Made by a program: the position numbers and the translations under genes
IMG/VR virus record: IMGVR_UViG_3300023247_000001
Span: 1-61,059 of that record
Strand: one strand, 5' to 3'
Source: a virus
Length of the DNA stretch: 61,059 bases
Shown: positions 4,670-61,059 of the stretch, piece by piece
How positions within the stretch are numbered: the first letter of the stretch is position 1
Layout: each line of letters opens with the position of its first letter
Notes under the pieces: model-generated
Databases searched by the model: none
What the model was told of the DNA's origin: nothing
Seen by the model: only the letters and a program-made list of their open reading frames with translations

Positions 4670-4921
4670 CTACTCCTTTGCTGCCATATGAGCAGCTTCA
4701 TGGTCACTTGCGTATCCGCTCCATAGGAGTTCGCTGTCAATTCCGCGGACTTCCACGTGGATGAGTTCCTTAGGAATCATGGTGGCCTTCAGTGTCCTGT
4801 TGAGGACGGTAATCAGAGGCAGGATGCCCAACCGGCTTGCACAGGCCGGGCACTGCTCTGGAGAGTCGCCGATCGCATCGCAATCAGCGCAGAGGTAGGC
4901 ATTGCGGAGGTTAACGTGCAT
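4670..4921 (-). CDS. Hypothetical zinc-ribbon-like protein
   Basis: 83 aa with CADC...CPAC cysteine pairs. Confidence 0.55.
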   Translation of the reverse strand: MHVNLRNAYLCADCDAIGDSPEQCPACASRLGILPLITVLNRTLKATMIPKELIHVEVRGIDSELLWSGYASDHEAAHMAAKE

Positions 4922-6663: not shown

Positions 6664-7281
6664 CTATTCCTCTCCCTCTGATTCGCTCTCGTCCTTCGCT
6701 TCAGAATAGCCGATACCGTCCCTACACGCAGGATGAAATGGAGGGCAGTCATCTCCAGACGGGAAATCCTCGTCGATAGGGATGAGACCCGCATCTGCAT
6801 TTTCTTGGCACTCTTCACAGCACCCCTCACCTGGGAAGCTCTGCTTGAACTTCTGCCCTGTTCCCTTGGCAGCCTCATGCTTGCCATGGTTGTAGGCGTA
6901 CATGCTTTCGGTCCTGCTGATGGTCAGGGCGCGCGCCGCGCTGAAGTCCTCGCTCTGCAAGATGTTGTGCTGCAACTCGGTCGTCGTCCATCCTTCATCG
7001 ACCGACTTGCTTATCAACTCTCGTAGGTTCTCGCGTGTCGTCTCTGTGATGGCGTAGCGGGCATCAGGATTATCAACGATCTCGCCCTTGTCTGTGATGC
7101 GCTTGCCCACCAGCTCCGCGCCGCGCTCCCGCGCCATCTGACGCGCCTGGTCCAAGACTTTGGTCCATATGTCGCTGTCTTCGACAATGCCGCGGTCGGT
7201 CAAGAACTCTGTGGCGCCAGCAACTGCATCAGTCTCAAGGTAGGGCGTCACCTCCGGGATCAGGTCGCCCCAGTCCACCAC
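6664..7281 (-). CDS. Head morphogenesis protein (Mu F / SPP1 gp7 family)
   Basis: ALTISRTESMYAYNHG and PPFHPACR motifs; lies just downstream of the portal gene; GTG start, N-terminus uncertain. Confidence 0.75.
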   Translation of the reverse strand: MVDWGDLIPEVTPYLETDAVAGATEFLTDRGIVEDSDIWTKVLDQARQMARERGAELVGKRITDKGEIVDNPDARYAITETTRENLRELISKSVDEGWTTTELQHNILQSEDFSAARALTISRTESMYAYNHGKHEAAKGTGQKFKQSFPGEGCCEECQENADAGLIPIDEDFPSGDDCPPFHPACRDGIGYSEAKDESESEGEE

Positions 7282-12144: not shown

Positions 12145-12340
12145 GTATGCCTCCGGCGGCTACGCCGCCCGCTTCGCCGGCAGGATCAGGACACGCTCCG
12201 AACGCAAGGCCAAGCCACGCTCACACACCAAGAGGTGTACGAAGAGCTGTACTCGGGGCTTGGGGAGTGTCTTTTGGGTCCTGTCGGCCATTGGATTTAC
12301 CACCATGACGGGATTATAAAGCATCTTGTGTCCTGATTTC

Positions 12341-12591
12341 CCATGAAACACGAACGCCCCACCGGAGTGAGGCGCCGCGCGCTGGATTCTGTTCCCAAGT
12401 TCCAGCAACTCGGACGGTGTTTAGGCCGCCATTTGAAGAGCAACCGCGGGACGGGCCGGGAAGGCCAGGACCTTGGCGTTCTTCGCGCTGTCAGTGTTCT
12501 TGGCAGTTTTCTGCTTGATTCTCGTTACGGTGAGCATCAATCCCGGCACGAAACTGTAGTCTGCTGATCCCGTCGAAACCGTGACGAGCCC
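12341..12591 (-). ncRNA. ssrA: tmRNA coding piece of a permuted two-piece ssrA gene (3' boundary approximate)
   Basis: 5' end GGGCTCG-TCACGGTTTCGACGGGAT is the canonical tmRNA 5' tRNA-like-domain (TLD) half. A tag frame follows. The 3' part GGGGCGTTCGTGTT can pair with the 5' end of the acceptor piece. Confidence 0.7.
12421..12504 (-). other. tmRNA tag-like reading frame (resume codon uncertain)
   Basis: Frame GCC AAG AAC ACT GAC ... GTT GCT CTT CAA ATG GCG GCC TAA gives AKNTDSAKNAKVLAFPARPAVALQMAA followed by a stop. Confidence 0.5.
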
Positions 12592-12656
12592 ACCAAAGCC
12601 CCAATCGATTTACGCTCCCCGTCGTTCAAAAGAACTCTGATGCAACGAAGGGGCTT
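12592..12656 (-). other. Intervening segment of the permuted pre-tmRNA
   Basis: 65 nt between the CCA end and the mature 5' end; its flanks (CCACCAAAGCCCC / GGGGCTTTGGTGG) extend the acceptor stem to about 18 bp. Confidence 0.6.
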
Positions 12657-12750
12657 TGGTGGACCCGGCGGGAGTCGAACCCGCGTCCGAAATCATCTTT
12701 CTACAGCGTTGACGTGCGTACTCTTGGGGCTTCACGGTGTTCTGTGGAGC
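12657..12750 (-). ncRNA. ssrA: tmRNA acceptor piece (5' boundary approximate)
   Basis: ...CTGTAGAAAGATGATTTCGGACGCGGGTTCGACTCCCGCCGGGTCCACCA: T-arm GCGGG/CCCGC, acceptor 3' strand CGGGTCC, discriminator A, encoded CCA ending at 12657. Confidence 0.8.
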
Positions 12751-12807
12751 GCCTCCACCATCACGTCAAAAGAGGACGTGAACTCAATGTTGATAAATGT
12801 ACCACGG

Positions 12808-13314
12808 TTATCGCGTTGCTTCAAATAAAAACCACGCGCGCCGCTCCGCCTCGTCAATCCACACCTCAATCATCGCGGTTGAGGCGTAGTCGTCGGCCAG
12901 GGCGCAGACTGTATGGGCGCTGCGCAGTTGGGCGATAAGAGTCCTGTTGTCGGCAAGAAGCTCCTTGAGCATCATCTCTGGCGCCGGGCCGGGCTCGTCT
13001 GAGTCCTGAATCCGCTGCAAACGGGCAATCTGACCAATCGACCGAATCGTGGTCCCGCCGATCTTGCGCACCCGCTCCGCAATGTCGTCCGTGATGCCGT
13101 AGATTTGCGTGGCTTGCTCGTCCAGAAGCAGGTGCCAGTCGCGGAAGTGCGGGCCGGTCATGTGCCAGTGGAAGTTCTTTGTCTTCAGGTACAAAGCGAA
13201 GCAGTCGGCCAGAAGAGCGTTCAGCGATTCGGAGAGCTTATCAACGTTCGCAGGACTGAAACCGTCTGCAACGTCTGAGCCTTGATAATCTCCGGTGGAG
13301 AATGGGAAGTCCAT
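12808..13314 (-). CDS. dps: Dps (DNA-binding ferritin-like protein)
   Basis: LKTKNFHWHMTGPHFRDWHLLLDE...DDIAERVRKIGG...WIDEAERRAWFL match Dps family hallmarks; ATG at 13314 with GAGG upstream (GTG at 13323 is also possible). Confidence 0.9.
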   Translation of the reverse strand: MDFPFSTGDYQGSDVADGFSPANVDKLSESLNALLADCFALYLKTKNFHWHMTGPHFRDWHLLLDEQATQIYGITDDIAERVRKIGGTTIRSIGQIARLQRIQDSDEPGPAPEMMLKELLADNRTLIAQLRSAHTVCALADDYASTAMIEVWIDEAERRAWFLFEATR

Positions 13315-14333: not shown

Positions 14334-15074
14334 ATGAACACTTCCGCATCAAACCAACATCTCATCAGCGTCCTAGACAAACTCTTCCCAACCTTTGAGC
14401 GCCTAAACGTAGAGCATCACGCCTACATGCAAGCGCAGAGTTACGTCTATGTGTTTCTTGTTGATTCAAAATATCTGAAGATTGGAACCTCACAGTCACC
14501 TTCCGGGCGGCTTCGTCAACTTCACTCCCCTGACGATCATCTCCCCCTCTCGCAGCACAACACAGAGATATTGTTCATGTTTCCTGTGCCAGGAAAGATC
14601 GCTCGCAGCGTCGAGCGCGACCTCTTGCACAGCAGGGAACTGCGCGGTAAGAAACTTACGAGCCGCATATTCACTGAGTGGTTTTCTGTCGAAGGGATAA
14701 CCAGAGCGGGCATAGAAACGCTACAGTTCTGCCTTCATGAGGATTGGTGCGCATCGCTAGAAACTCATGTTCGCGGATGGATGTATTGGGATGCCCCCAA
14801 CTCGCCAGGAATGGTCAAATTATTACACCTATCAGAGGATGTGGTATTGGCCTCCAAGGTGGTTTTTTGTCGGCGAGTGTATCTCGGATTGCGCACATCA
14901 GGGTGGATTGACTCCAATGGGCATCATTGCAACTTGGACCATCTAGGCTTCGAAGTGCAGGCATGGAACTTCGAAAAAGGCCAATTCATTCCAAAGTATC
15001 CAGCCAACATCAACAGTCTCACTCCAAAGGTTGCCGGTTTGGGTCCTGACGGGCAAGGGGAGTTCTTCGAATGA
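14334..15074 (+). CDS. T5orf172 / MUG113 (GIY-YIG-like) domain protein
   Basis: YVYVFLVDSKYLKIGTSQSPSGRLRQL...ERDLLHS...EWFSV fits the T5orf172 pattern. Confidence 0.6.
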   Translation: MNTSASNQHLISVLDKLFPTFERLNVEHHAYMQAQSYVYVFLVDSKYLKIGTSQSPSGRLRQLHSPDDHLPLSQHNTEILFMFPVPGKIARSVERDLLHSRELRGKKLTSRIFTEWFSVEGITRAGIETLQFCLHEDWCASLETHVRGWMYWDAPNSPGMVKLLHLSEDVVLASKVVFCRRVYLGLRTSGWIDSNGHHCNLDHLGFEVQAWNFEKGQFIPKYPANINSLTPKVAGLGPDGQGEFFE

Positions 15075-15841
15075 GCAGAATGGTTTGCCAGTTCTCATGC
15101 GGTGCAGCATCGGCGGTCGCAACAAAGCTGATTCTTGCGGCTTATGCGCCCGATGAAGTTCTGATCGTCAACGCCTTCATCAAAGAAGAGCATCCTGATA
15201 ATCGCCGCTTCTTTGCCGACTGCGAGAGGTGGTTTGCGCATCCCGTCATTGTCCTGAAAGATGAGAAATATGGTGCATCTACCCATGAGGTTTGGAAACG
15301 TAAGCGATTCATGAAGGGGTTACGCGGTGCGCCGTGCTCGCTTATTCTCAAGCGCCAATTGCTAGCCACCGTAGCGCAACCTGGAGATGTGAACGTTTTG
15401 GGTTTTACACGCGAGGAGTGGGACCGATTCGATTCTCTTTGCGAACGATTTCCCGATGAGAAATTCCGTGCTCCATTGATCGAAAAAGATCTAGGTAAGG
15501 ACGACTGTTTGGCTATGGTCGAGCGCGCTGGCATACAACTTCCGATGATGTACCGCATGGGATACGACAACGCAAATTGCATCGGGTGCCCGAAAGGCGG
15601 ACAAGCATACTGGCAGAACATCCGCGAGGACTTTCCACAAGATTTTGTGCAGATAAAGATGATCCAACAGGCCATAGGCCCCGGTGCCAACTTTCTACGG
15701 TTCCGGTCTGGCCCGCGCAACGGCGAGCGGATGAGCCTTGCAGAGTTGCCCGCTGGACGTGGAGACATGAATCGGGAACCGAGTTTCTCATGCTCCTTCT
15801 TCTGCCAACTGGCCGAGCAGGAAATCGAACGGGGCGAGTAA
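15071..15841 (+). CDS. PAPS reductase-like (PP-loop ATPase superfamily) protein
   Basis: N-terminal FSCGAASAVATKL loop and C-terminal Cys pair CIGCPKGG; ATGA-coupled to the T5orf172 gene. Confidence 0.6.
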   Translation: MSRMVCQFSCGAASAVATKLILAAYAPDEVLIVNAFIKEEHPDNRRFFADCERWFAHPVIVLKDEKYGASTHEVWKRKRFMKGLRGAPCSLILKRQLLATVAQPGDVNVLGFTREEWDRFDSLCERFPDEKFRAPLIEKDLGKDDCLAMVERAGIQLPMMYRMGYDNANCIGCPKGGQAYWQNIREDFPQDFVQIKMIQQAIGPGANFLRFRSGPRNGERMSLAELPAGRGDMNREPSFSCSFFCQLAEQEIERGE

Positions 15842-15887: not shown

Positions 15888-16106
15888 ATGAGGAAATACG
15901 ACAAAGACGACGTGATGCAGGACCTTCGTGACCTCATTGCAAAGTCCAACCAAAGCAAAGTGGCAGCAGGACTCGGATACACGCCCCAGTACATCTCTCA
16001 GGTCCTGAAGGGCAAGAAGGCGCTGACGGCCGATCTGGCCTTGCGCGTGGGATTTATCCAACTGCCCGATGCTTACGTGCGGGCACCGAAAGGAAAGGTG
16101 AAGTAG
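15888..16106 (+). CDS. HTH (Cro/CI-type) DNA-binding protein
   Basis: 72 aa; SKVAAGLGYTPQYISQVLKGKK is a typical HTH. Confidence 0.65.
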   Translation: MRKYDKDDVMQDLRDLIAKSNQSKVAAGLGYTPQYISQVLKGKKALTADLALRVGFIQLPDAYVRAPKGKVK

Positions 16107-16663
16107 TGGAAACTCTGCGAATCACCAAAGCAGACTTGAACGAGCGTAACGAATACACACGCTCACGCGACCTTGAATTCGAAGGCCACATCGAAGTTGA
16201 GGCATCGCTCGGATGGGTAGTTGTGCTCGGCTTCATTCGCGCTGGCGGCCGCTTGGGCATCGAGGCTGGCTCGGGCATCAAGGCTGGCTCGGGCATCAAG
16301 GCTGGCTGGGGCATCGAGGCTGGCTTGGGCATCGAGGCTGGCTCGGGCATCAAGGCTGGCTGGGGCATCGAGGCTGGCTGGGGCATCGAGGCTGGCTTGG
16401 GCATCGAGGCTGGCTGGGGCATCGAGGCTGGCTTGGGCATCGAGGCTGGCTGGGGCATCAAGGCTGGCTGGGGCATCAAGGCTGGCTTTTGGATTCACTG
16501 CAAACTCTCAATTTCGGTTAAACTGCGCATCTTTTCTGGCCTCTGCATGTGGCGTCTACCGCGTCCCGAAGAGCAGGAGATTGTTTGCGCCGAGCTGAAG
16601 TCTGGAACCGTGGCTTTCGGGACTCTGAAACTCTTGGAAGCGCCGAAGAAAGAAGGCAAGTAG
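16106..16663 (+). CDS. Hexapeptide-repeat (beta-helix-like) protein of unknown function
   Basis: 185 aa; 13 consecutive G-I-(E/K)-A-G-(W/S/L/F) units; GTG start overlaps the upstream TAG. Confidence 0.6.
   Translation: METLRITKADLNERNEYTRSRDLEFEGHIEVEASLGWVVVLGFIRAGGRLGIEAGSGIKAGSGIKAGWGIEAGLGIEAGSGIKAGWGIEAGWGIEAGLGIEAGWGIEAGLGIEAGWGIKAGWGIKAGFWIHCKLSISVKLRIFSGLCMWRLPRPEEQEIVCAELKSGTVAFGTLKLLEAPKKEGK
16256..16489. repeat. 13 x 18-bp near-perfect tandem repeat (in frame)
   Basis: GGCATC(G/A)AGGCTGGCT(C/G/T)G; only 2 of 18 positions vary, apart from the terminal unit, which ends TTT; all six frames stay open across it. Confidence 0.95.
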
Positions 16664-17874
16664 TGGACAACCAGAATGCACTGCAAGTTCAGGACACTGA
16701 CAAACTGGCCGAGTACCAAGAGCAAAGCATTTCCATGGTGCAGCAGCGGGAAAAGGCCAAGATCGAATCCCGCTACATCATGGCTTTGCGTCAACCGCGT
16801 GACCTTGAAGTGGTTCGCCAGAAGATGTTGCGTGAATGCAGCCGGCCATCTTTCTGTGCTCCTGACATGAGCAAGAACGGGTCGAGCGTCGCGATCTATC
16901 GTGTCCCGCGCGGCGGAAGCAAAATCGAAGGCGTTACTATCCGTTTTGCTGAGATGGCAAAGCGCTGCTACGGTCACATCTTCGTCGAAGTAACTCCGTT
17001 GGGCGAGGATGAGACGCAGCAGATTTACCAAGTCGAGGCAACCGACTATCAGAACAACGACGGCGGCAGTGAGATCGTGATTGTCCCGAAGCGCATCGAG
17101 CGCAGTTTTGCGAAAGACTCTGATGTGGTGTTGGGACGTCGTGAAAACAGCCAAGGCAAGACCACATTCACTATCGTCCCGACCGATGATGACCTTCAGG
17201 TAAAGCGCAACGCGCTCAACTCCAAGGCCCGGCGCAACGTCATCATGCAGTGCATCGATGGCTGGCTGGTCGAAGAGTGCAAAGCTAAGATTCGCGAGAC
17301 GGCGGCGGCGAAAGATGCAGAGAACCCCGGCGCGGCCAAGACGGCCATCTTCGACGCGTTCGCATCCATCGGAGTAACAGCAGCACAACTCAATGAGTAC
17401 ATCGGGCACGCAGGAGATTTGAGTCCTGCCGAGCTTGACGAGATGCGCAGCTTCTTCGGCGGCATCCAGCAGGGTTACACCACATGGGCAGAGATCGCGG
17501 CCAGCAAGGGCGAAGGCAAGGACGAAGGTTCAGCAGATCGCATCGAAGCGCTAGTGAAGGAACTGGAATACACGCCGGCTCAGGCCAGGACGAAGAAGGC
17601 GAAGTACGCAGGGCGCCCGAAAGAGTTGATCGAGTGGCTTGAGGGTGAAGTTGCCAAGAAGCGCAACGACGGAGGTTCTCACTCTGCCAAGAACGCAACG
17701 GCGCAGCAAGTAGAAGACCACAAGGAACCCAAGCCGGAAGCGAAGACCACTCACCGCGAGTCGGCAGAACCGGAGCCACAGCAGGACGCAAAGCAGTCGA
17801 GTCCTGTCGAGCAAGAGAAGCCAGCCGAGACGAAGAAGAGCGCGCCGGCCGCTCCGTCATTCGAGAACTGGTAA
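16663..17874 (+). CDS. Possible recombination-associated (ssDNA-annealing?) protein with Lys/Glu-rich tail
   Basis: Frame of ORF 16549..17874; GTG at 16663 overlaps the upstream TAG; lies next to a Cas4-like nuclease. The function is inferred from context only. Confidence 0.35.
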
Positions 17875-30584: not shown

Positions 30585-30617
30585 ACCCCGCAGGACTCAA
30601 TCGAGCTTCTGCGGGGT
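30585..30617. other. 9-bp hairpin between the convergent arms
   Basis: ACCCCGCAG-15 nt-CTGCGGGGT; no U-run; overlaps the 3' end of the 1012-aa gene. Confidence 0.4.
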
Positions 30618-33600
30618 TACGTCCTTCTCCCAATCGAACTTCGCTGGCATTAGAATTCCCTGCTCCGTCCCACCCTCATGCTTTGTGAACGTTATGATTC
30701 GTCCTTTGCTTCCCGGCTTCAACTGTCCATAGGCCCCCAGCAGATTCCCGGTAATGATCTTCGCGCGCTGCCGAGTGTCGCTGAGATAGTCCTGAAACAA
30801 CTCGGCAATATCAGCATTGCGGCCAAGATTCGCCAGCGTGATCTTCTTGATTTGCGAACCTGGTACGCGCACCTCGCGCAAAGGTCCGTTGACGGCAATG
30901 TAGAACTTCAGAGAGCTGGGAGCGTATGGATTGCCGCTTACCTTCTTGCGACCGCGAATATCGTAGATAACGCCGTTGTAAGTGTCGCCGTTGATTTCGA
31001 TTCTGAGTCCTGATCCCACTCGAAAGTCGTTTAGAATCGTCCGCGACCATTCCCTAATGCGCTCGGCCCGTTCGATGATGTGTGGCGCTTCAACGGATGC
31101 GATGTATGGCTTGAACAAGCCCTCAAGGTGTGCGCTCAAGGCCCGCGCGTGGTACGTGTCCCGCTGCCATGGCTCGTACTTCATGAGGTCAGGACCATAA
31201 GTCTGTGCGATCAGTTCGGATACCTCCTCCGGTGTATAAGACTTTCCTTGCCGCTTGATTGAGTATGTCCCGAAGGTGGCGTCTTCCCCGAACGGCGATG
31301 AAGGATCAGACCCAACGTAGATGACGTGCGAGGTCTTCTGCTCTGCGTCGAAGTCGTAGGTCTTGGGCTCAAGGTCATTCTGCCCTGTCTCATCAAGATA
31401 CGCGATGTAGTCCGTGTAGCTCTCGGTGATCGTCTCCATAAACTCTCGCTGCTCTTTGACGGGCAAGAGTGCTGAGCGTCCTGTTGCCGTGCGTGCCAGG
31501 TCTTCCTCTGGAGTTCCGCCTTCCTCCTCCGACTTGTCCATCGTCAGGCCCATGAGACGGGCAATCTGCTCATTCTCGTGCAGCCACTCCGCGACGATCT
31601 TGTCGCCGTACTTGTTCATCATGTCTGGCGCCTCAATCGACATTGCCGACCGCGTGTTGCTCGACGTGTTGGCGTTCAGGCTCTTCAGTTTCTTGGCGAG
31701 GCTGATGGCCGGGCGAATCTCTGCGGGGATGGCCAGGGAGAGCATCGTGTACCTTGGCAGGACCATCTGGCCGGTCCTGTTCGAACGTCCGAGGATCTGC
31801 ATGAACACGTTCACGTCGCCGGCCGGTTGAGCAACGATCATGTGCCGCTGATGTTGGTCTTTGAACTTCTCGGAAGCGTGGAGACTGATTCCTGTCGAGC
31901 CCGCCTGGTTCAGAACCAAACAATCGACGCCGCCATTATTGAACAGGCTGCCGGTCTGCACGCGGTCCTTCCGCTCGCTGGCCGGGACTGAAGACAGGAC
32001 AGGGACGGGACCCGCATAGTTGATTCGATACGAGCGTCCGGTAATCTCTGCCACGGTAAAGCCGGCTTGCGTGATTCGAGTCCTGATCCAATCGATAGGC
32101 GACACCGGCAGCGTTACCGCAAGAGCGTCCAGAAGCCTCTCAGCTTCCCGGTACTTTGCTTCCGTCTCGACGTAGAGCAGATGGCGCGGGAACTCTTGGC
32201 GGTCATTGCCCATTGAGGTCTTGATGGTGTAGTGAAGGGTCCTGTCGAGGGCACGCCTGAGTATGGTGGACCATGAGAGCTTATCAAGCACTTCGCCCTC
32301 GCTCAAGTTCGCCGCACTCACATAGCTGTCGAGGAACGCGCCCATAGTGCTCTCAAGGGCGACAATTGGCTTTTCCCCGCGTCCGAGCGCTTCGATGGCG
32401 CAATCTGCTGCGGCATCCGACTTCAAGGCCAGGAGAAACTGCTTCACGATGTTGTGGACGATGGCGCTGAACTTGTGATGGTAGATCTTGATGTGCCGCT
32501 TCTTGTACTGGAGGCGCAGAGTCTCGAAATCGTTCTGATGATAGTCCTGATCTGCTTTGAAGATGGCCCGCAAGACTTCCGTCACCTGATCACATATATC
32601 CTCTTGTGTGTCCTGATTTCTGTCGTCAATGAAGTTCAGGATGCTGATGCCCTCAAAGGACCGCTCACGGCGCACGAGTTGGCCGGTCTGGGCGAGTTGG
32701 TGGCTCACGACGGTCTGTAGTGGTGGACCACCGGCGCGGATGGCGTCAGAGACACGCTGGTTGTCGGGAATGGCAATCGAGATGTCCGTCTTGGTGGCGT
32801 AGAGCGTCATGTTGTCCGGCCGCTTCGCCCACGTTGCCGACAGGAACATCACGCCGTGCGCCGCTGGAAGAACCTCTTGGAAGAACGCTCCTGTGTTCGA
32901 CTCATCGCCGCCGGCGTTGTGGGACTCGTCAAGGATGAAGACGGCTTTCGGCGCCAACCGTCTCAGTGCCTCCTGCTGGATGTTGATCGTATTGATCTGC
33001 GAATAGGTCAAGTACACGGCATTCCGCGCGCGCGGCAGTTCGCCAGTCTCGGCAATCCTTGTCAGGACCCCCTTCATGCTGCTCTTGTTGGCGAAGATTT
33101 TGCGTCCTGTTGCCTGCTCAGTTATCGACGCCCCGGCATTGAAGAGCAGAGGCCAGACGCTTGGACCGAAGCCGATGTCGTCAAGATCGCGTTGGAAGTC
33201 GGTGAAGAGGGTATCCGAGTAGGTGACGAAGATCGGCAACAGACCGTGAAGAATGGTCCACCGGCAGACAGCCGCCGCTACCCTACCCTTTCCAACTCCG
33301 GTCTGATCCGCGCACACCAGCGCCCTTTGCTTCCTGATCTGCCAGATGGCCAGGGCAATCGAATCAACCTGGAGGCCCATGAAGTAGCTCTGCATCTCCT
33401 TGACGGAGGGGTACTCCAGTTCGCGGGCCACGAACTCGTCCAAGTCGCCACCCTCAGCCCGGACGCGCTCCATAGCCACCCGCATCGGCTCTTTCATTGA
33501 TCGCGGGCACATCACTGCTTCATCTTGGAGGCTGGAAAGTGAGGCGTAGACCTCTTGATAAGCGTTCATATTCTCGACAGGACGCTGAATCCGAGTCCTG

Positions 33601-33635
33601 CGGTTGAGTAGCAATAGTCTGGTTGATAAGTCCAT
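30597..33635 (-). CDS. Strawberry-notch-like (SNO/SBNO) superfamily-2 helicase
   Basis: ADQTGVGKGR P-loop, FILDESHNAGG, LSATWAKRPDNM, NQAGSTGISLHA, QILGRSNRTGQ, C-terminal ITGNLLGA; the start could instead be the internal MNAYQ. Confidence 0.7.
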   Translation of the reverse strand: MDLSTRLLLLNRRTRIQRPVENMNAYQEVYASLSSLQDEAVMCPRSMKEPMRVAMERVRAEGGDLDEFVARELEYPSVKEMQSYFMGLQVDSIALAIWQIRKQRALVCADQTGVGKGRVAAAVCRWTILHGLLPIFVTYSDTLFTDFQRDLDDIGFGPSVWPLLFNAGASITEQATGRKIFANKSSMKGVLTRIAETGELPRARNAVYLTYSQINTINIQQEALRRLAPKAVFILDESHNAGGDESNTGAFFQEVLPAAHGVMFLSATWAKRPDNMTLYATKTDISIAIPDNQRVSDAIRAGGPPLQTVVSHQLAQTGQLVRRERSFEGISILNFIDDRNQDTQEDICDQVTEVLRAIFKADQDYHQNDFETLRLQYKKRHIKIYHHKFSAIVHNIVKQFLLALKSDAAADCAIEALGRGEKPIVALESTMGAFLDSYVSAANLSEGEVLDKLSWSTILRRALDRTLHYTIKTSMGNDRQEFPRHLLYVETEAKYREAERLLDALAVTLPVSPIDWIRTRITQAGFTVAEITGRSYRINYAGPVPVLSSVPASERKDRVQTGSLFNNGGVDCLVLNQAGSTGISLHASEKFKDQHQRHMIVAQPAGDVNVFMQILGRSNRTGQMVLPRYTMLSLAIPAEIRPAISLAKKLKSLNANTSSNTRSAMSIEAPDMMNKYGDKIVAEWLHENEQIARLMGLTMDKSEEEGGTPEEDLARTATGRSALLPVKEQREFMETITESYTDYIAYLDETGQNDLEPKTYDFDAEQKTSHVIYVGSDPSSPFGEDATFGTYSIKRQGKSYTPEEVSELIAQTYGPDLMKYEPWQRDTYHARALSAHLEGLFKPYIASVEAPHIIERAERIREWSRTILNDFRVGSGLRIEINGDTYNGVIYDIRGRKKVSGNPYAPSSLKFYIAVNGPLREVRVPGSQIKKITLANLGRNADIAELFQDYLSDTRQRAKIITGNLLGAYGQLKPGSKGRIITFTKHEGGTEQGILMPAKFDWEKDVTPQKLD

Positions 33636-59326: not shown

Positions 59327-60964
59327 CTAGTTGCCGCCCAGGTCAATCTTGAAGTTGGGGTCGTTGATCGACTTCGCAAACCCGCTGCCAGGGGTGCACA
59401 TCAGACCGAAAGCGCGCGCCGTGGCCTGCTCAGAGCTGCGCTGGTCGTTCGGATCAGCTTCGGAGAGCGATTTGTTGATCATCCGGTTGAAGTCAGCCTT
59501 GCCGTCGCTGGCCGGGAACACATCCCCGGTAGAGTTGGCAACGAACAGCTTCGGGCGGCGGCCGGCGGAGGGCTGATTCTCGATCACGGACATCTGACCC
59601 TTCAGGAAAGCGTTGTCGGCAATCAGCGGGGCGGTAGCTTCGGCCACAGCGGCCTTGACCATCGTCGCAATTGCAGCCGCAGAATAAGGCGAGTCGCCAG
59701 CGCCGCGGAAGGTGTTGCCCTCCACTTCGCCTTCAGTCATGCGCCGCGTGGAAAGCTCTTCGACGTTCTCCGAATGAGGCTTCTCGCCCAAGTCGGTTTC
59801 CGCCTTCTCGCCATCCCAGCCAGTCATGGCCTTGCCGAGCGCAGCGTGAGCCAGTTCGTGATGGTCGGCAATGTCGTTCATGTGTCCCGAAAGCGCCGTG
59901 AGGTGCTTCTTGAACTCATCGCCGCCGTCGGCCGCCTTGCCCATGCACTTGTGAAGAGCCTCAAGTTCATCGACCGCCTTGCCGTGGGAGGCCGAAGCCT
60001 TCTTGATGTGGTCATCGGCCTTCTTGATGGCCGCCTTTTTCCCTGCCGTGAACCGCTTCTGGAGGTCAGTATCCATGATGGTGCTCTCCTTTTGCTTTGT
60101 GCTGCCCGGCCAATCGGCGGGTAGAAGGTGGGTTGCGTTCAGCGCTTTCGCGCGTGTGACGATGTGAGCCTTGGCTTTCTCGGGGTCCGATGCGCGGCCA
60201 AAGGCTTGGACGGCGTTCTCAAGATCCTTCACGGTCTGGACAGGGAAAGAACCGTCGGGAAGCGCTACCCCAGTGCTACCGAGGTGCTTGCGTTCCTTTT
60301 CGCTGAACTCCCGCTTCTCAAGGTCAACGCCGTCCGCAAACTTGGCGGTCAGAGTGGCCATCTCATCGGCGGTCAGTTCCTCGGACTCAACAGGACTCAG
60401 ATTCGTGTCCTGTGCGGCTTTGGCAAGGTCCGGGAGTGCAATCTTCCCCATCCCGAGAATCGTCCGGAACGTGTCAAGCGCCTTTTCCATCAAAGTCTCG
60501 TTACTGGTTTGATTCTCCATCGACCCTCCAAAGGCGAGCCCACCGGCAATCTTCACGATGTCAATGCGACAATCGGAGTTCGCCGGCCGGTCAACGAGGC
60601 TGATCTCTCGCAAGGAAAGCGCCTTGACCACATCGCCAACCTTCTCCAGTTTGGAACCGCCGATACTGAATCCCTTGTAGACGCCTTCCTTGCACAGCTT
60701 CCACGCAGCGGGATCAACGATCTTGGCTCCGATGTACAGCCCTTTGGCGTCAATGTGGGCCTCTTTGGTCACGCCAACGGCATTGTTGGTGTGCATGGTC
60801 CTGATGTTCGCCCACTTCATGTAGTCGGGGAGGGCGGCCTTGATGGCGTCCAGCGGAACAATCTCCCCTTGCAGGTCCTTCGATGGCGTTGAGGCATAGC
60901 CCCAGACCATTCCGCTCTGCGCGTCCACCTTCTCAATCGGGAGAAATACGCTGAAATCGTCCAT
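59327..60964 (-). CDS. Prohead protease (HK97/S78-like) fused to a scaffold-like C-terminal region
   Basis: N-terminal ~140 aa ending REISLVDRPANSDCRI; long helical Lys/Glu/Ala-rich remainder. Confidence 0.7.
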   Translation of the reverse strand: MDDFSVFLPIEKVDAQSGMVWGYASTPSKDLQGEIVPLDAIKAALPDYMKWANIRTMHTNNAVGVTKEAHIDAKGLYIGAKIVDPAAWKLCKEGVYKGFSIGGSKLEKVGDVVKALSLREISLVDRPANSDCRIDIVKIAGGLAFGGSMENQTSNETLMEKALDTFRTILGMGKIALPDLAKAAQDTNLSPVESEELTADEMATLTAKFADGVDLEKREFSEKERKHLGSTGVALPDGSFPVQTVKDLENAVQAFGRASDPEKAKAHIVTRAKALNATHLLPADWPGSTKQKESTIMDTDLQKRFTAGKKAAIKKADDHIKKASASHGKAVDELEALHKCMGKAADGGDEFKKHLTALSGHMNDIADHHELAHAALGKAMTGWDGEKAETDLGEKPHSENVEELSTRRMTEGEVEGNTFRGAGDSPYSAAAIATMVKAAVAEATAPLIADNAFLKGQMSVIENQPSAGRRPKLFVANSTGDVFPASDGKADFNRMINKSLSEADPNDQRSSEQATARAFGLMCTPGSGFAKSINDPNFKIDLGGN

Positions 60965-61059
60965 CTGGCTCCTGTAAACGCAAAAAGGCCCGGACGATTG
61001 AGCTTTGATAAGCCGTCACGTCCGAGCCAGATTGTTTCTGTACCCGTCGATTGAGATAT
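60933..61059. repeat. Terminal direct repeat copy 2 (circular assembly overlap)
   Basis: Identical to nt 1-127; contains the first 32 nt of the protease gene plus its leader. Confidence 0.95.

Follow-up and report, generated by a model that had tools for sequence, protein, structure and literature searches.

A two-piece, circularly permuted tmRNA gene in an optional cassette of an uncultured, probably virulent myovirus

The tmRNA gene: parts and conservation

The IMG/VR virus record IMGVR_UViG_3300023247_000001 was analysed over its full length of 61,059 nucleotides (nt), here called the window, with a focus on a gene for a transfer-messenger RNA (tmRNA) on its minus strand. The gene is a genuine two-piece (circularly permuted) tmRNA within a phage genome, and its sequence conservation suggests that it is probably functional. 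A preliminary description of the window had proposed a permuted, phage-borne tmRNA and had named ARAGORN and Rfam searches as ways of checking it; both recover the gene. ARAGORN, run on the whole window, finds no tRNA genes and calls a single gene, a permuted tmRNA (tmRNA*) at 12330-12749 (-) with the tag AKNTDSAKNAKVLAFPARPAVALQMAA*. The Rfam model RF04321 (tmRNA_permuted) matches over its full length at 12421-12717 (-), scoring 87.7 bits (E=1.7e-15) where the gathering threshold is 47; RF01849 (alpha_tmRNA) is barely over threshold (50.6 bits vs 50), and RF01850 (beta_tmRNA) stays below (50.2 bits vs 84). These two tmRNA matches over threshold are the only ones in the Rfam scan of the window. 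A terminal repeat, myovirus structural genes and a terminase around the gene place it in a phage. Its parts are as follows.

12657..12717 (-): core of the acceptor piece (RF04321 alignment, coordinates, covariation, co-fold)
12713-12717 (-): 5' strand of helix P2c, in the acceptor piece
12701-12706 (-): 5' strand of P2b, in the acceptor piece
12688-12694 (-): 5' strand of P2a, in the acceptor piece
12668-12684 (-): T arm, GCGGG-UUCGACU-CCCGC, aligned to the RF04321 consensus
12657-12667 (-): acceptor 3' strand CGGGUCC and encoded ACCA (sequence reading)
12592..12656 (-): intervening segment (spacer), 65 nt, a hairpin extending the acceptor stem (fold, comparison of relatives)
12546..12591 (-): start of the coding piece, with the acceptor 5' strand, the D-loop analogue GGUUUCGACGG and the 3' strands of P2a, P2b and P2c
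12585-12591 (-): acceptor 5' strand G1-G7, GGGCUCG, with G3 opposite U
12515..12545 (-): PK1 pseudoknot region, CGG...CCG and UUGAU...AUCAA, invariant in 12 divergent copies
12421..12504 (-): tag frame, resume codon GCC (Ala), 27 codons and UAA, AKNTDSAKNAKVLAFPARPAVALQMAA (ARAGORN, alleles)
12381..12406 (-): internal 3'-domain hairpin GCUGGA-N14-UCCAGC, matching a hairpin in RF01850
12344..12374 (-): terminal hairpin CGCCUCAC-UCCG-GUGGGGCG (12374-12355) and U-rich tail (terminator-like call, counterpart in RF01850)

The tRNA-like half has a 7-bp acceptor stem (GGGCUCG/CGGGUCC) that includes G3:U, a discriminator A, a CCA end, and the canonical T loop and D-loop analogue GGUUUCGACGG of an SmpB-binding tRNA-like domain. 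The messenger half has PK1 ahead of an Ala resume codon, a hydrophobic tag end in ...AA and a stop. The acceptor piece is encoded upstream of the coding piece and joined to it by the spacer, which is the gene order of RF04321. Read from the sequence, the coordinates given in the preliminary description are all correct—the ACCA end at 12657, the 65-nt spacer and G1 at 12591—and so is its acceptor stem. It had also proposed that the spacer flanks extend this stem to about 18 bp; the fold gives 17 contiguous pairs, and one relative (L012) keeps the extension with a different sequence. The P2 pairings it listed (CUGUAG/CUACAG, GCACG/CGUGC and UGAU/AUCA) were found as well; our reading of P2 is GCACG/CGUGC, CUGUAG/CUACAG and GAU/AUC plus UCG/CGG. 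A thermodynamic co-fold of the two predicted mature pieces forms 24/24 expected inter-piece pairs and 5/5 T-stem pairs. The terminal hairpin is likely both the 3' end of the coding piece and an intrinsic terminator.

Conservation of the fold was assessed in two alignments, in which compared loci carry labels of the form Lnnn and WIN is the window copy. Alignment A1 holds seven cassettes of the window's phage lineage, scored on a 51-pair structure with 500 shuffles and slid-partner controls; A2 holds 12 copies, including those of unrelated phages, scored on a 37-pair core with 500 shuffles. All 306 of the 306 cells in A1 form standard pairs, and six pairs show compensatory double changes; no shuffle (0/500) matches either figure, and the slid-partner controls reach 36-43% pairing. 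The corresponding value for A2 is 99.3% of 444 cells (3 unpaired), a percentage that, like that of A1, is inflated because the aligned copies are related and the tested structure was itself taken from the window sequence and the Rfam consensus. This bias does not affect how many pairs show compensatory changes (15/37 in A2, with 0/500 shuffles matching), nor the slid controls.

The compensatory changes fall in several helices. In A2, G3:U is kept in 12/12 copies, acceptor pairs 4-6 change in a compensatory way, and so do 3/5 pairs of the T stem. The acceptor 5' strand takes the forms GGGCUCG, GGGGCCG, GGGGAUG, GGGGGUG, GGGCCUG, GGGCAUG, GGGCCCG and GGGUGUG, each with a matching 3' strand. The internal 3'-domain hairpin is paired in every cell of A1, with a one-sided G:C to G:U change, and the terminal hairpin shows a compensatory C:G to G:C change in L031/L038/L032. 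PK1 also pairs in all cells of A2, with one-sided changes only. The pattern as a whole indicates that the tmRNA fold is under purifying selection in phages.

One pairing of the preliminary description did not survive comparison. It had matched the 3' part of the coding piece (GGGGCGUUCGUGUU) with the 5' region of the acceptor piece; this complementarity amounts to only 5+5 bp in the window and is unconserved in relatives, with uncompensated losses in L012 (U-C), L031/L038/L032 (C-C) and L029 (4/10 pairs), and we rejected it. The G-to-C change that breaks it in L031/L038/L032 is compensated within the local terminal hairpin, and it is this local hairpin, rather than the long-range pairing, that the comparison supports at the 3' end of the coding piece.

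The spacer contrasts with the flanking tRNA-like halves, which are conserved and never reached by spacer insertions or deletions. From CCA to G1 it measures 65 nt in the window, L031 and L038, about 80 in L012, 120 in L032, 4 in L029 and 3 in L026. Long spacers always fold back and lengthen the acceptor stem: that of L012 is unrelated in sequence and still builds the extended stem, and that of L032 is a near-perfect long hairpin. With length and sequence both free among relatives, the spacer behaves as excised sequence would. Together with an RNase P-type junction at G1, the unconstrained spacer suggests that the precursor is cleaved into two RNAs.

The tag frame ending ...MAA-TAA that had been noticed earlier is the coding sequence 12504-12421, which ends in QMAA, and the frame is kept across alleles. 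Long alleles of 26-28 codons (WIN, L012, L031, L032, L045, L048, L057 and L093) have K(V/L)L(A/T)FP and AL(P/Q)MAA in common and a variable N-terminal half; short alleles read ADSFELPVAA, AAAFALPVAA and AE(P/D)FALPMAA. The window tag has the C-terminal peptide ...KVLAFPARPAVALQMAA and the C-terminal stretch ...AKVLAFPARPAVALQMAA. Tags end in ...MAA in the window's phage lineage and in VAA, LAA or IAA in other members of the family. The resume codon is Ala, 11-12 nt past PK1, in all alleles with the sole exception of L051, where the start is probably mis-called. Between WIN and L045 there are 10 third-position and 3 first-position changes, and synonymous differences occur. The Ala resume codons, fixed spacing, shared motifs and synonymous changes fit a tag that evolves as a translated frame.

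Sub-type and occurrence in other phages

Lineage-specific models normally outscore RF04321 (PMC11915505); the window reverses this pattern, with 87.7 bits for RF04321 against 50.6 for alpha and 50.2 for beta. Among family members the best lineage-specific model alternates between alpha and beta. The copy in L026, which has a short tag and a short spacer, scores 84.2 bits with RF01850, at the threshold of 84 (other family members reach 46-63), and its alignment (model positions 1-331) takes in P2, the tRNA-like domain, the PK1 stem, the tag and the internal and terminal hairpins. We therefore class the gene as beta-like, because L026 reaches the beta threshold and the beta model accounts for the whole architecture. 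The window copy, penalised by its 27-codon tag and 65-nt spacer, formally misses the RF01850 score; it has the beta-specific architecture, with hairpins at 12381-12406 and 12355-12374 and a tag end QMAA to set beside the ...FAMAA consensus. Clean alpha membership was considered and is not supported: 50.6 bits against 50 is marginal, and the T loop is not of the alpha type.

These assignments rest on lineage-defining features taken from the Rfam models, and they leave clear likenesses and differences. The window gene agrees with the beta two-piece tmRNA (RF01850) in gene order, P2 helices, canonical T loop, PK1 stem, MAA end and both hairpins. It differs in its tag (27 codons, some three times the beta consensus of ~10), in its spacer (65 nt vs ~29) and in its place on a phage rather than a bacterial chromosome. 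With the alpha two-piece tmRNA (RF01849, the Caulobacter paradigm) it has in common the permutation and an aligned AACAGAA motif in the 3' domain; however, the alpha T-loop consensus is GGCgGUA and that of the window is UUCGACU, and most of the consensus sequence differs.

The preliminary description had taken it that no phage-borne permuted tmRNA was known, and this premise falls. Buchholz et al. 2022 described a two-piece ssrA in the OM43 phage Melnitz, and by ARAGORN 53 of 133 distinct phage tmRNAs in that study are permuted (PMC9004378). The carriers in its Table S1 include phiCbK-like Caulobacter phages, HTVC008M, Mosig, cyanophages, Bordetella PHB04, and Stenotrophomonas, Citrobacter and Sphingobium phages (PMC9004378); permuted tmRNAs have also been reported from pelagimyophages, cyanomyophages and the Sphingobium phage Lacusarx (PMC9004378, PMC5648845). 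The Rfam scan of the window found no glutamine riboswitch of the Melnitz type. We fetched five deposited phage genomes and scanned them with RF04321, which confirmed a permuted tmRNA in each:

Stenotrophomonas QDWS359 (L082): 108.7 bits
Bordetella PHB04 (L078): 104.5 bits
Xanthomonas Rb1 (L081): 103.4 bits
Tunturibacter Tunturi_5 (L080): 86.4 bits
Tunturibacter Tunturi_4 (L079): 79.2 bits

The gene is unannotated in all five records, and that of QDWS359 has an opposite-strand 'hypothetical protein' annotated over it. Beta is the best lineage-specific model, below threshold, in 4/5; the best clan match of Tunturi_4 is RF00023, with 41.1 bits. In Tunturi_4 (PP885687.1, ~43.4-44.3 kb) the tmRNA, with a tag of 33 amino acids (aa), lies directly downstream of gp53, an ArfB-like gene annotated as an RF-1-domain peptide chain release factor, so that two ribosome-rescue functions are adjacent.

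Like these known cases, the window holds a complete permuted gene in a non-integrating tailed phage, and such genes often go unannotated; the long tag has a parallel in Tunturi_4. Unlike them, it belongs to a family that has only the tRNA-like core in common with them, with a different PK1, tag and 3' domain, and blastn of the window tmRNA against deposited phages gave no match past the T arm. Most reported cases lie in genomes of 90-320 kb, usually among tRNA genes, in contrast to a 61-kb genome without tRNA genes and a polymorphic cassette by the terminase. One-piece phage tmRNAs (the mycobacteriophage Bxz1 group, Bacillus phage G) also occur in lytic phages but have the standard order, and the tRNA-like-domain-only (TLD-only) RNA of DS6A is phage-borne but has no tag frame, where the window has a full tag. 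The att sites at ssrA 3' ends in temperate phages and genomic islands have 35-39 nt of T-arm and acceptor sequence in common with the window; these are fragments beside an integrase, whereas the window has the whole gene, no integrase among the about 50 ORFs scanned and no host junction. Two-piece tmRNAs in phages were thus already documented, and what the window adds is a distinct uncultured sub-lineage.

The comparisons indicate that the same tmRNA type circulates among unrelated phages. An IMG/VR scan with an invariant PK1 19-mer found it on contigs otherwise unrelated to the window, some of them 77-83-kb contigs with the tmRNA inside arrays of up to 28 tRNA genes. A metagenome scan with the PK1 sequence gave 44 matches, about half of them chance (including those on 386-kb and 202-kb contigs), and the true copies all lie on phage-like contigs of at most 90 kb. 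In species-representative genomes the PK1 20-mer had 9 matches, all by chance in coding DNA and none in a tmRNA; this search thus yielded no cellular donor or host.

Two kinds of carrier differ from the window in detail. In L054 (3313-3730), L060 and L126, which are phage contigs of 49-90 kb, the tag is AAAFALPVAA and the tmRNA lies within an array of up to 28 tRNA genes, where a tRNA-Glu overlaps the 3' end of the ARAGORN tmRNA; this overlap suggests that 3'-end formation is coupled to tRNA processing and not to a terminator hairpin. L057 (3408-3851) encodes ACCU, not ACCA, after the acceptor stem, and its CCA would therefore need repair or addition; a CyVA-1 small RNA match (RF02965, 44 bits vs 41.4) lies about 1 kb away, at 4776-4855.

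The form of a phage tmRNA need not mirror that of its host: Acidobacteriota genomes, for instance, are overwhelmingly standard, with 1589 standard tmRNAs and 5 beta-permuted ones. 'Beta-type' permuted tmRNAs are listed for 658 genomes, 64 of them outside Pseudomonadota (PMC11915505 Supplementary Table 2); the 64 include Bacteroidota (23), Bacillota (7), Acidobacteriota (5), Patescibacteria (5) and several archaeal metagenome-assembled genomes (PMC11915505). Beta-like tmRNAs of phages or prophages could explain these sporadic calls.

The cassette and its phage

The tmRNA occupies a slot between two conserved genes, beside the DNA-packaging genes of the phage:

12325..12807 (-): whole tmRNA cassette, 483 nt (slot mapping, junction comparison)
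12808..13314 (-): upstream neighbour, ferritin-like/Dps protein, 168 aa, ATG at 13314 (Pfam PF00210, 1.1e-24); left hotspot boundary
12160..12324 (-): downstream neighbour, conserved 54-aa open reading frame (ORF), ATG at 12324 (homology in tmRNA-less relatives); right hotspot boundary
12796..12824 (-): putative promoter TTGAAG-17 nt-TACATT with a TGn extended -10; its -35 lies within the last Dps codons
1..127, identical to 60933-61059 (no strand): direct terminal repeat, 127 nt (repeat search, 100% identity)

An 82-aa TTG-started ORF that overlaps the tmRNA (12160-12408) was discarded as an artefact, since homology starts at the ATG at 12324 and public calls give 54 aa. A scan of IMG/VR with TerL, the large terminase, returned 43 loci, 42 of them with a terminase 94-99% identical, and only some carry the tmRNA. 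Anchored by the Dps end on one side and by the start of the 54-aa ORF (ATG 12324) on the other, the slot contained:

Empty (0 nt): 8 loci
Unrelated 201-nt insert: 7 loci
Unrelated 421-nt insert: 2 loci
Unrelated 1256-nt insert: 1 locus
tmRNA cassette, 361-1010 nt: 8 loci, including the window

Empty sites read ...TGA|ATG..., with the Dps stop abutting the next ATG, and the cassette can therefore be set at exactly 12325-12807. The last ~20 nt of Dps co-vary with the presence of the cassette, which suggests that it is exchanged by recombination through the conserved flanks.

The other occupants of the slot are diverse. The 1256-nt insert (L006, 5946-7201) encodes, in place of a tmRNA, a 343-aa IS605-type TnpB with matches to Pfam OrfB_IS605 (4e-28) and the Cas12f1-like TNB (1.9e-26). 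The 201-nt insert (L013, L015, L023, L025, L033, L037 and L040) encodes a 48-aa CxxC...CxxC protein, of which L017 and L021 have a 421-nt version. In L032 (2411-2880) a 141-aa ORF with an HNH-like CxxC...WHADH motif and no Pfam match adjoins the tmRNA.

Upstream of the gene, the block with TGnTACATT is invariant across all 7 cassettes. In L032, where the HNH-like ORF lies upstream, the promoter scan calls TTGACA-16-TACATT (10/12, TG present) in the same register.

At least 23 public contigs encode the exact Dps protein, and three of them are independent assemblies of ~60-61 kb with the same gene order; in their public records the tmRNA region is an unannotated gap of ~480 nt. The window itself is a circularly closed or terminally redundant genome of ~60,932 bp without host flanks, because positions 1-127 are identical to 60933-61059. 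It encodes packaging and head genes (small and large terminase, portal, Mu-F-like head protein, a head protease/capsid region), tail genes (sheath, baseplate wedge, tape measure) and replication and modification genes (DnaB-like helicase, DNA methyltransferases, PD-(D/E)XK nuclease, SbcC-like ATPase, HNH endonuclease). Integrase, repressor, SmpB and RF-1 domains were absent from the about 50 ORFs scanned, and the gene content points to a myovirus that is probably virulent. TerL is at most 34% identical to that of any deposited phage; DNA searches of INPHARED, near and distant, turned up no relative of the phage and no megablast match, and the tmRNA gave the T-arm segment only.

Several further features of these genomes deserve mention. 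At 16215-16538, inside the overlapping ORFs 16106-16663 and 16549-17874, an 18-nt unit is repeated in tandem at least 13 times (68-100% identity), and multiple offset matches in L049 and L055 suggest variation in copy number. The Mu-F-like head protein is inteinless in the window (205 aa, 6664-7281) and, at 525 aa, carries an intein (PF14890) in L070/L071/L073 (gene at ~12034 onward). The window also encodes a PAPS-reductase-like protein (phrog_424, 15071-15841) and a 1012-aa Strawberry-notch-like helicase (30597-33635). In L074, L076 and L077 the 246-aa and 256-aa genes upstream of Dps are replaced by a gene of the pRha/ANT anti-repressor type.

Function and alternative explanations

The best explanation, which we consider likely, is that the window carries a selectively maintained, beta-like two-piece tmRNA as an optional accessory cassette of a probably virulent myovirus. 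A single precursor would be transcribed from the gene's own extended -10 promoter (12824-12796) to the terminal hairpin and U-tail (12374-12344). Host RNase P would cut 5' of G1 (12591), and the 65-nt spacer hairpin behind the CCA (12657) would be trimmed. The resulting acceptor piece (~60-130 nt) and coding piece (~240 nt) would be held together by the acceptor stem and P2, whose pairing covariation and the co-fold show. By established tmRNA biology, host AlaRS would charge the RNA through G3:U, and SmpB and EF-Tu would bring it to stalled ribosomes; SmpB would have to come from the host, because the phage has none among the about 50 ORFs scanned. Translation would resume at GCC (12504), and the 27-residue tag ending in MAA would mark the product for host proteases and free the ribosome. 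The likely benefit to the phage is added ribosome-rescue capacity during infection, when non-stop complexes multiply because mRNA is degraded or cleaved. The cassette would spread through its recombination and insertion hotspot, exchanged by way of the conserved flanks.

Several points weigh against this explanation. The cassette is missing from about two thirds of close relatives and is therefore dispensable. The window promoter scores 8/12, below the scan cut-off, and was not called. No compensatory change was seen in PK1, so its pairing is compatible with the data rather than demonstrated by them. The structure used for scoring was derived in part from the window itself, and the copy lies under the beta threshold and barely over the alpha one. 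Finally, every mechanistic step beyond the conserved fold is one that we infer.

It is possible, if rather unlikely, that the cassette serves takeover or anti-defence: a working tmRNA would counter abortive-infection or toxin systems that cleave mRNA or tRNA, or its long tag would give products a phage-specific fate. Presence and absence in a hotspot that also takes TnpB, HNH and small-ORF inserts is typical of accessory and counter-defence genes; the tag is ~3 times the beta length and keeps an internal K(V/L)L(A/T)FP, Tunturi_4 couples its tmRNA with an RF-1-domain rescue-factor gene, and the same tmRNA type recurs in unrelated phages. However, the window has no defence or anti-defence gene linked to the tmRNA, and the short alleles ADSFELPVAA and AAAFALPVAA are found in identical or comparable contexts, which makes the long tag dispensable; the idea is inferential throughout.

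It is improbable that the RNA is a decoy that, by binding to SmpB or ribosomes of the host, would block or divert host trans-translation. Such a role has been proposed for the TLD-only RNA of mycobacteriophage DS6A, inhibition of tmRNA by a TLD-only molecule is noted in the literature (PMC4131195, PMC11915505), and the authors of the Lacusarx study speculate on counteracting host tagging (PMC5648845); the perfectly conserved tRNA-like domain would suit it. A decoy, however, needs no tag frame, and here the resume codon, PK1 spacing, motifs, stop and 3' hairpins are conserved across divergent alleles.

That the gene is a decaying passenger—a real, recently acquired tmRNA, neutral and on its way to being lost—seems very improbable. 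Its absence from most close relatives and the lack of a fully encoded CCA in L057 are what such decay would look like; against it stand the compensatory changes in 15/37 pairs with 3/444 cells unpaired, spacer insertions and deletions that spare the functional halves, and the persistence of the family in several unrelated phage backbones.

A functionless host ssrA remnant, left as an attP integration site or by imprecise excision, has next to nothing to recommend it: a 35-39-nt T-arm/acceptor part does match the ssrA-derived att regions of many temperate enterobacterial phages, but no species-representative bacterial genome has the invariant PK1 20-mer in a tmRNA, the true metagenomic copies sit on phage-like contigs of at most 90 kb, phage copies show strong compensatory evolution, and a host fragment is excluded because the genome is closed by its terminal repeat, with no host flank, and has no integrase among the about 50 ORFs. 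The preliminary description had itself raised an ssrA 3' copy used as attP as the finding that would overturn it; the locus holds both pieces, the tag and the 3' domain in an insertion/deletion cassette, and the partial ssrA 3' segment with integrase and crossover end that marks an attP or prophage junction is absent.

The maintained two-piece tmRNA overturns nothing, as two-piece tmRNAs in phages are on record. Interest remains in the polymorphism at population level, in spacers of extremely variable length and in a tag that is both long and conserved. There is a practical side as well: in public gene calls the region is either a 480-nt blank or a set of spurious small ORFs. Genome papers list phage-encoded tmRNAs, whose function has hardly been studied, and phages with 94-99% identical terminases, with and without the cassette, provide a natural experiment. 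The 3-120-nt range of the spacer bears on the processing of permuted pre-tmRNA, and short (10 aa) and long (26-28 aa) tags bear on the purpose of the tag during infection. A further reading, which we regard as doubtful, is that these genes form a phage-restricted beta-like lineage, mobile among unrelated soil and peat phages, whose extended tag re-routes products or neutralises defences that cleave mRNA or tRNA. If that were true, the tmRNA would be a dedicated viral takeover or anti-defence RNA and not a borrowed housekeeping gene.

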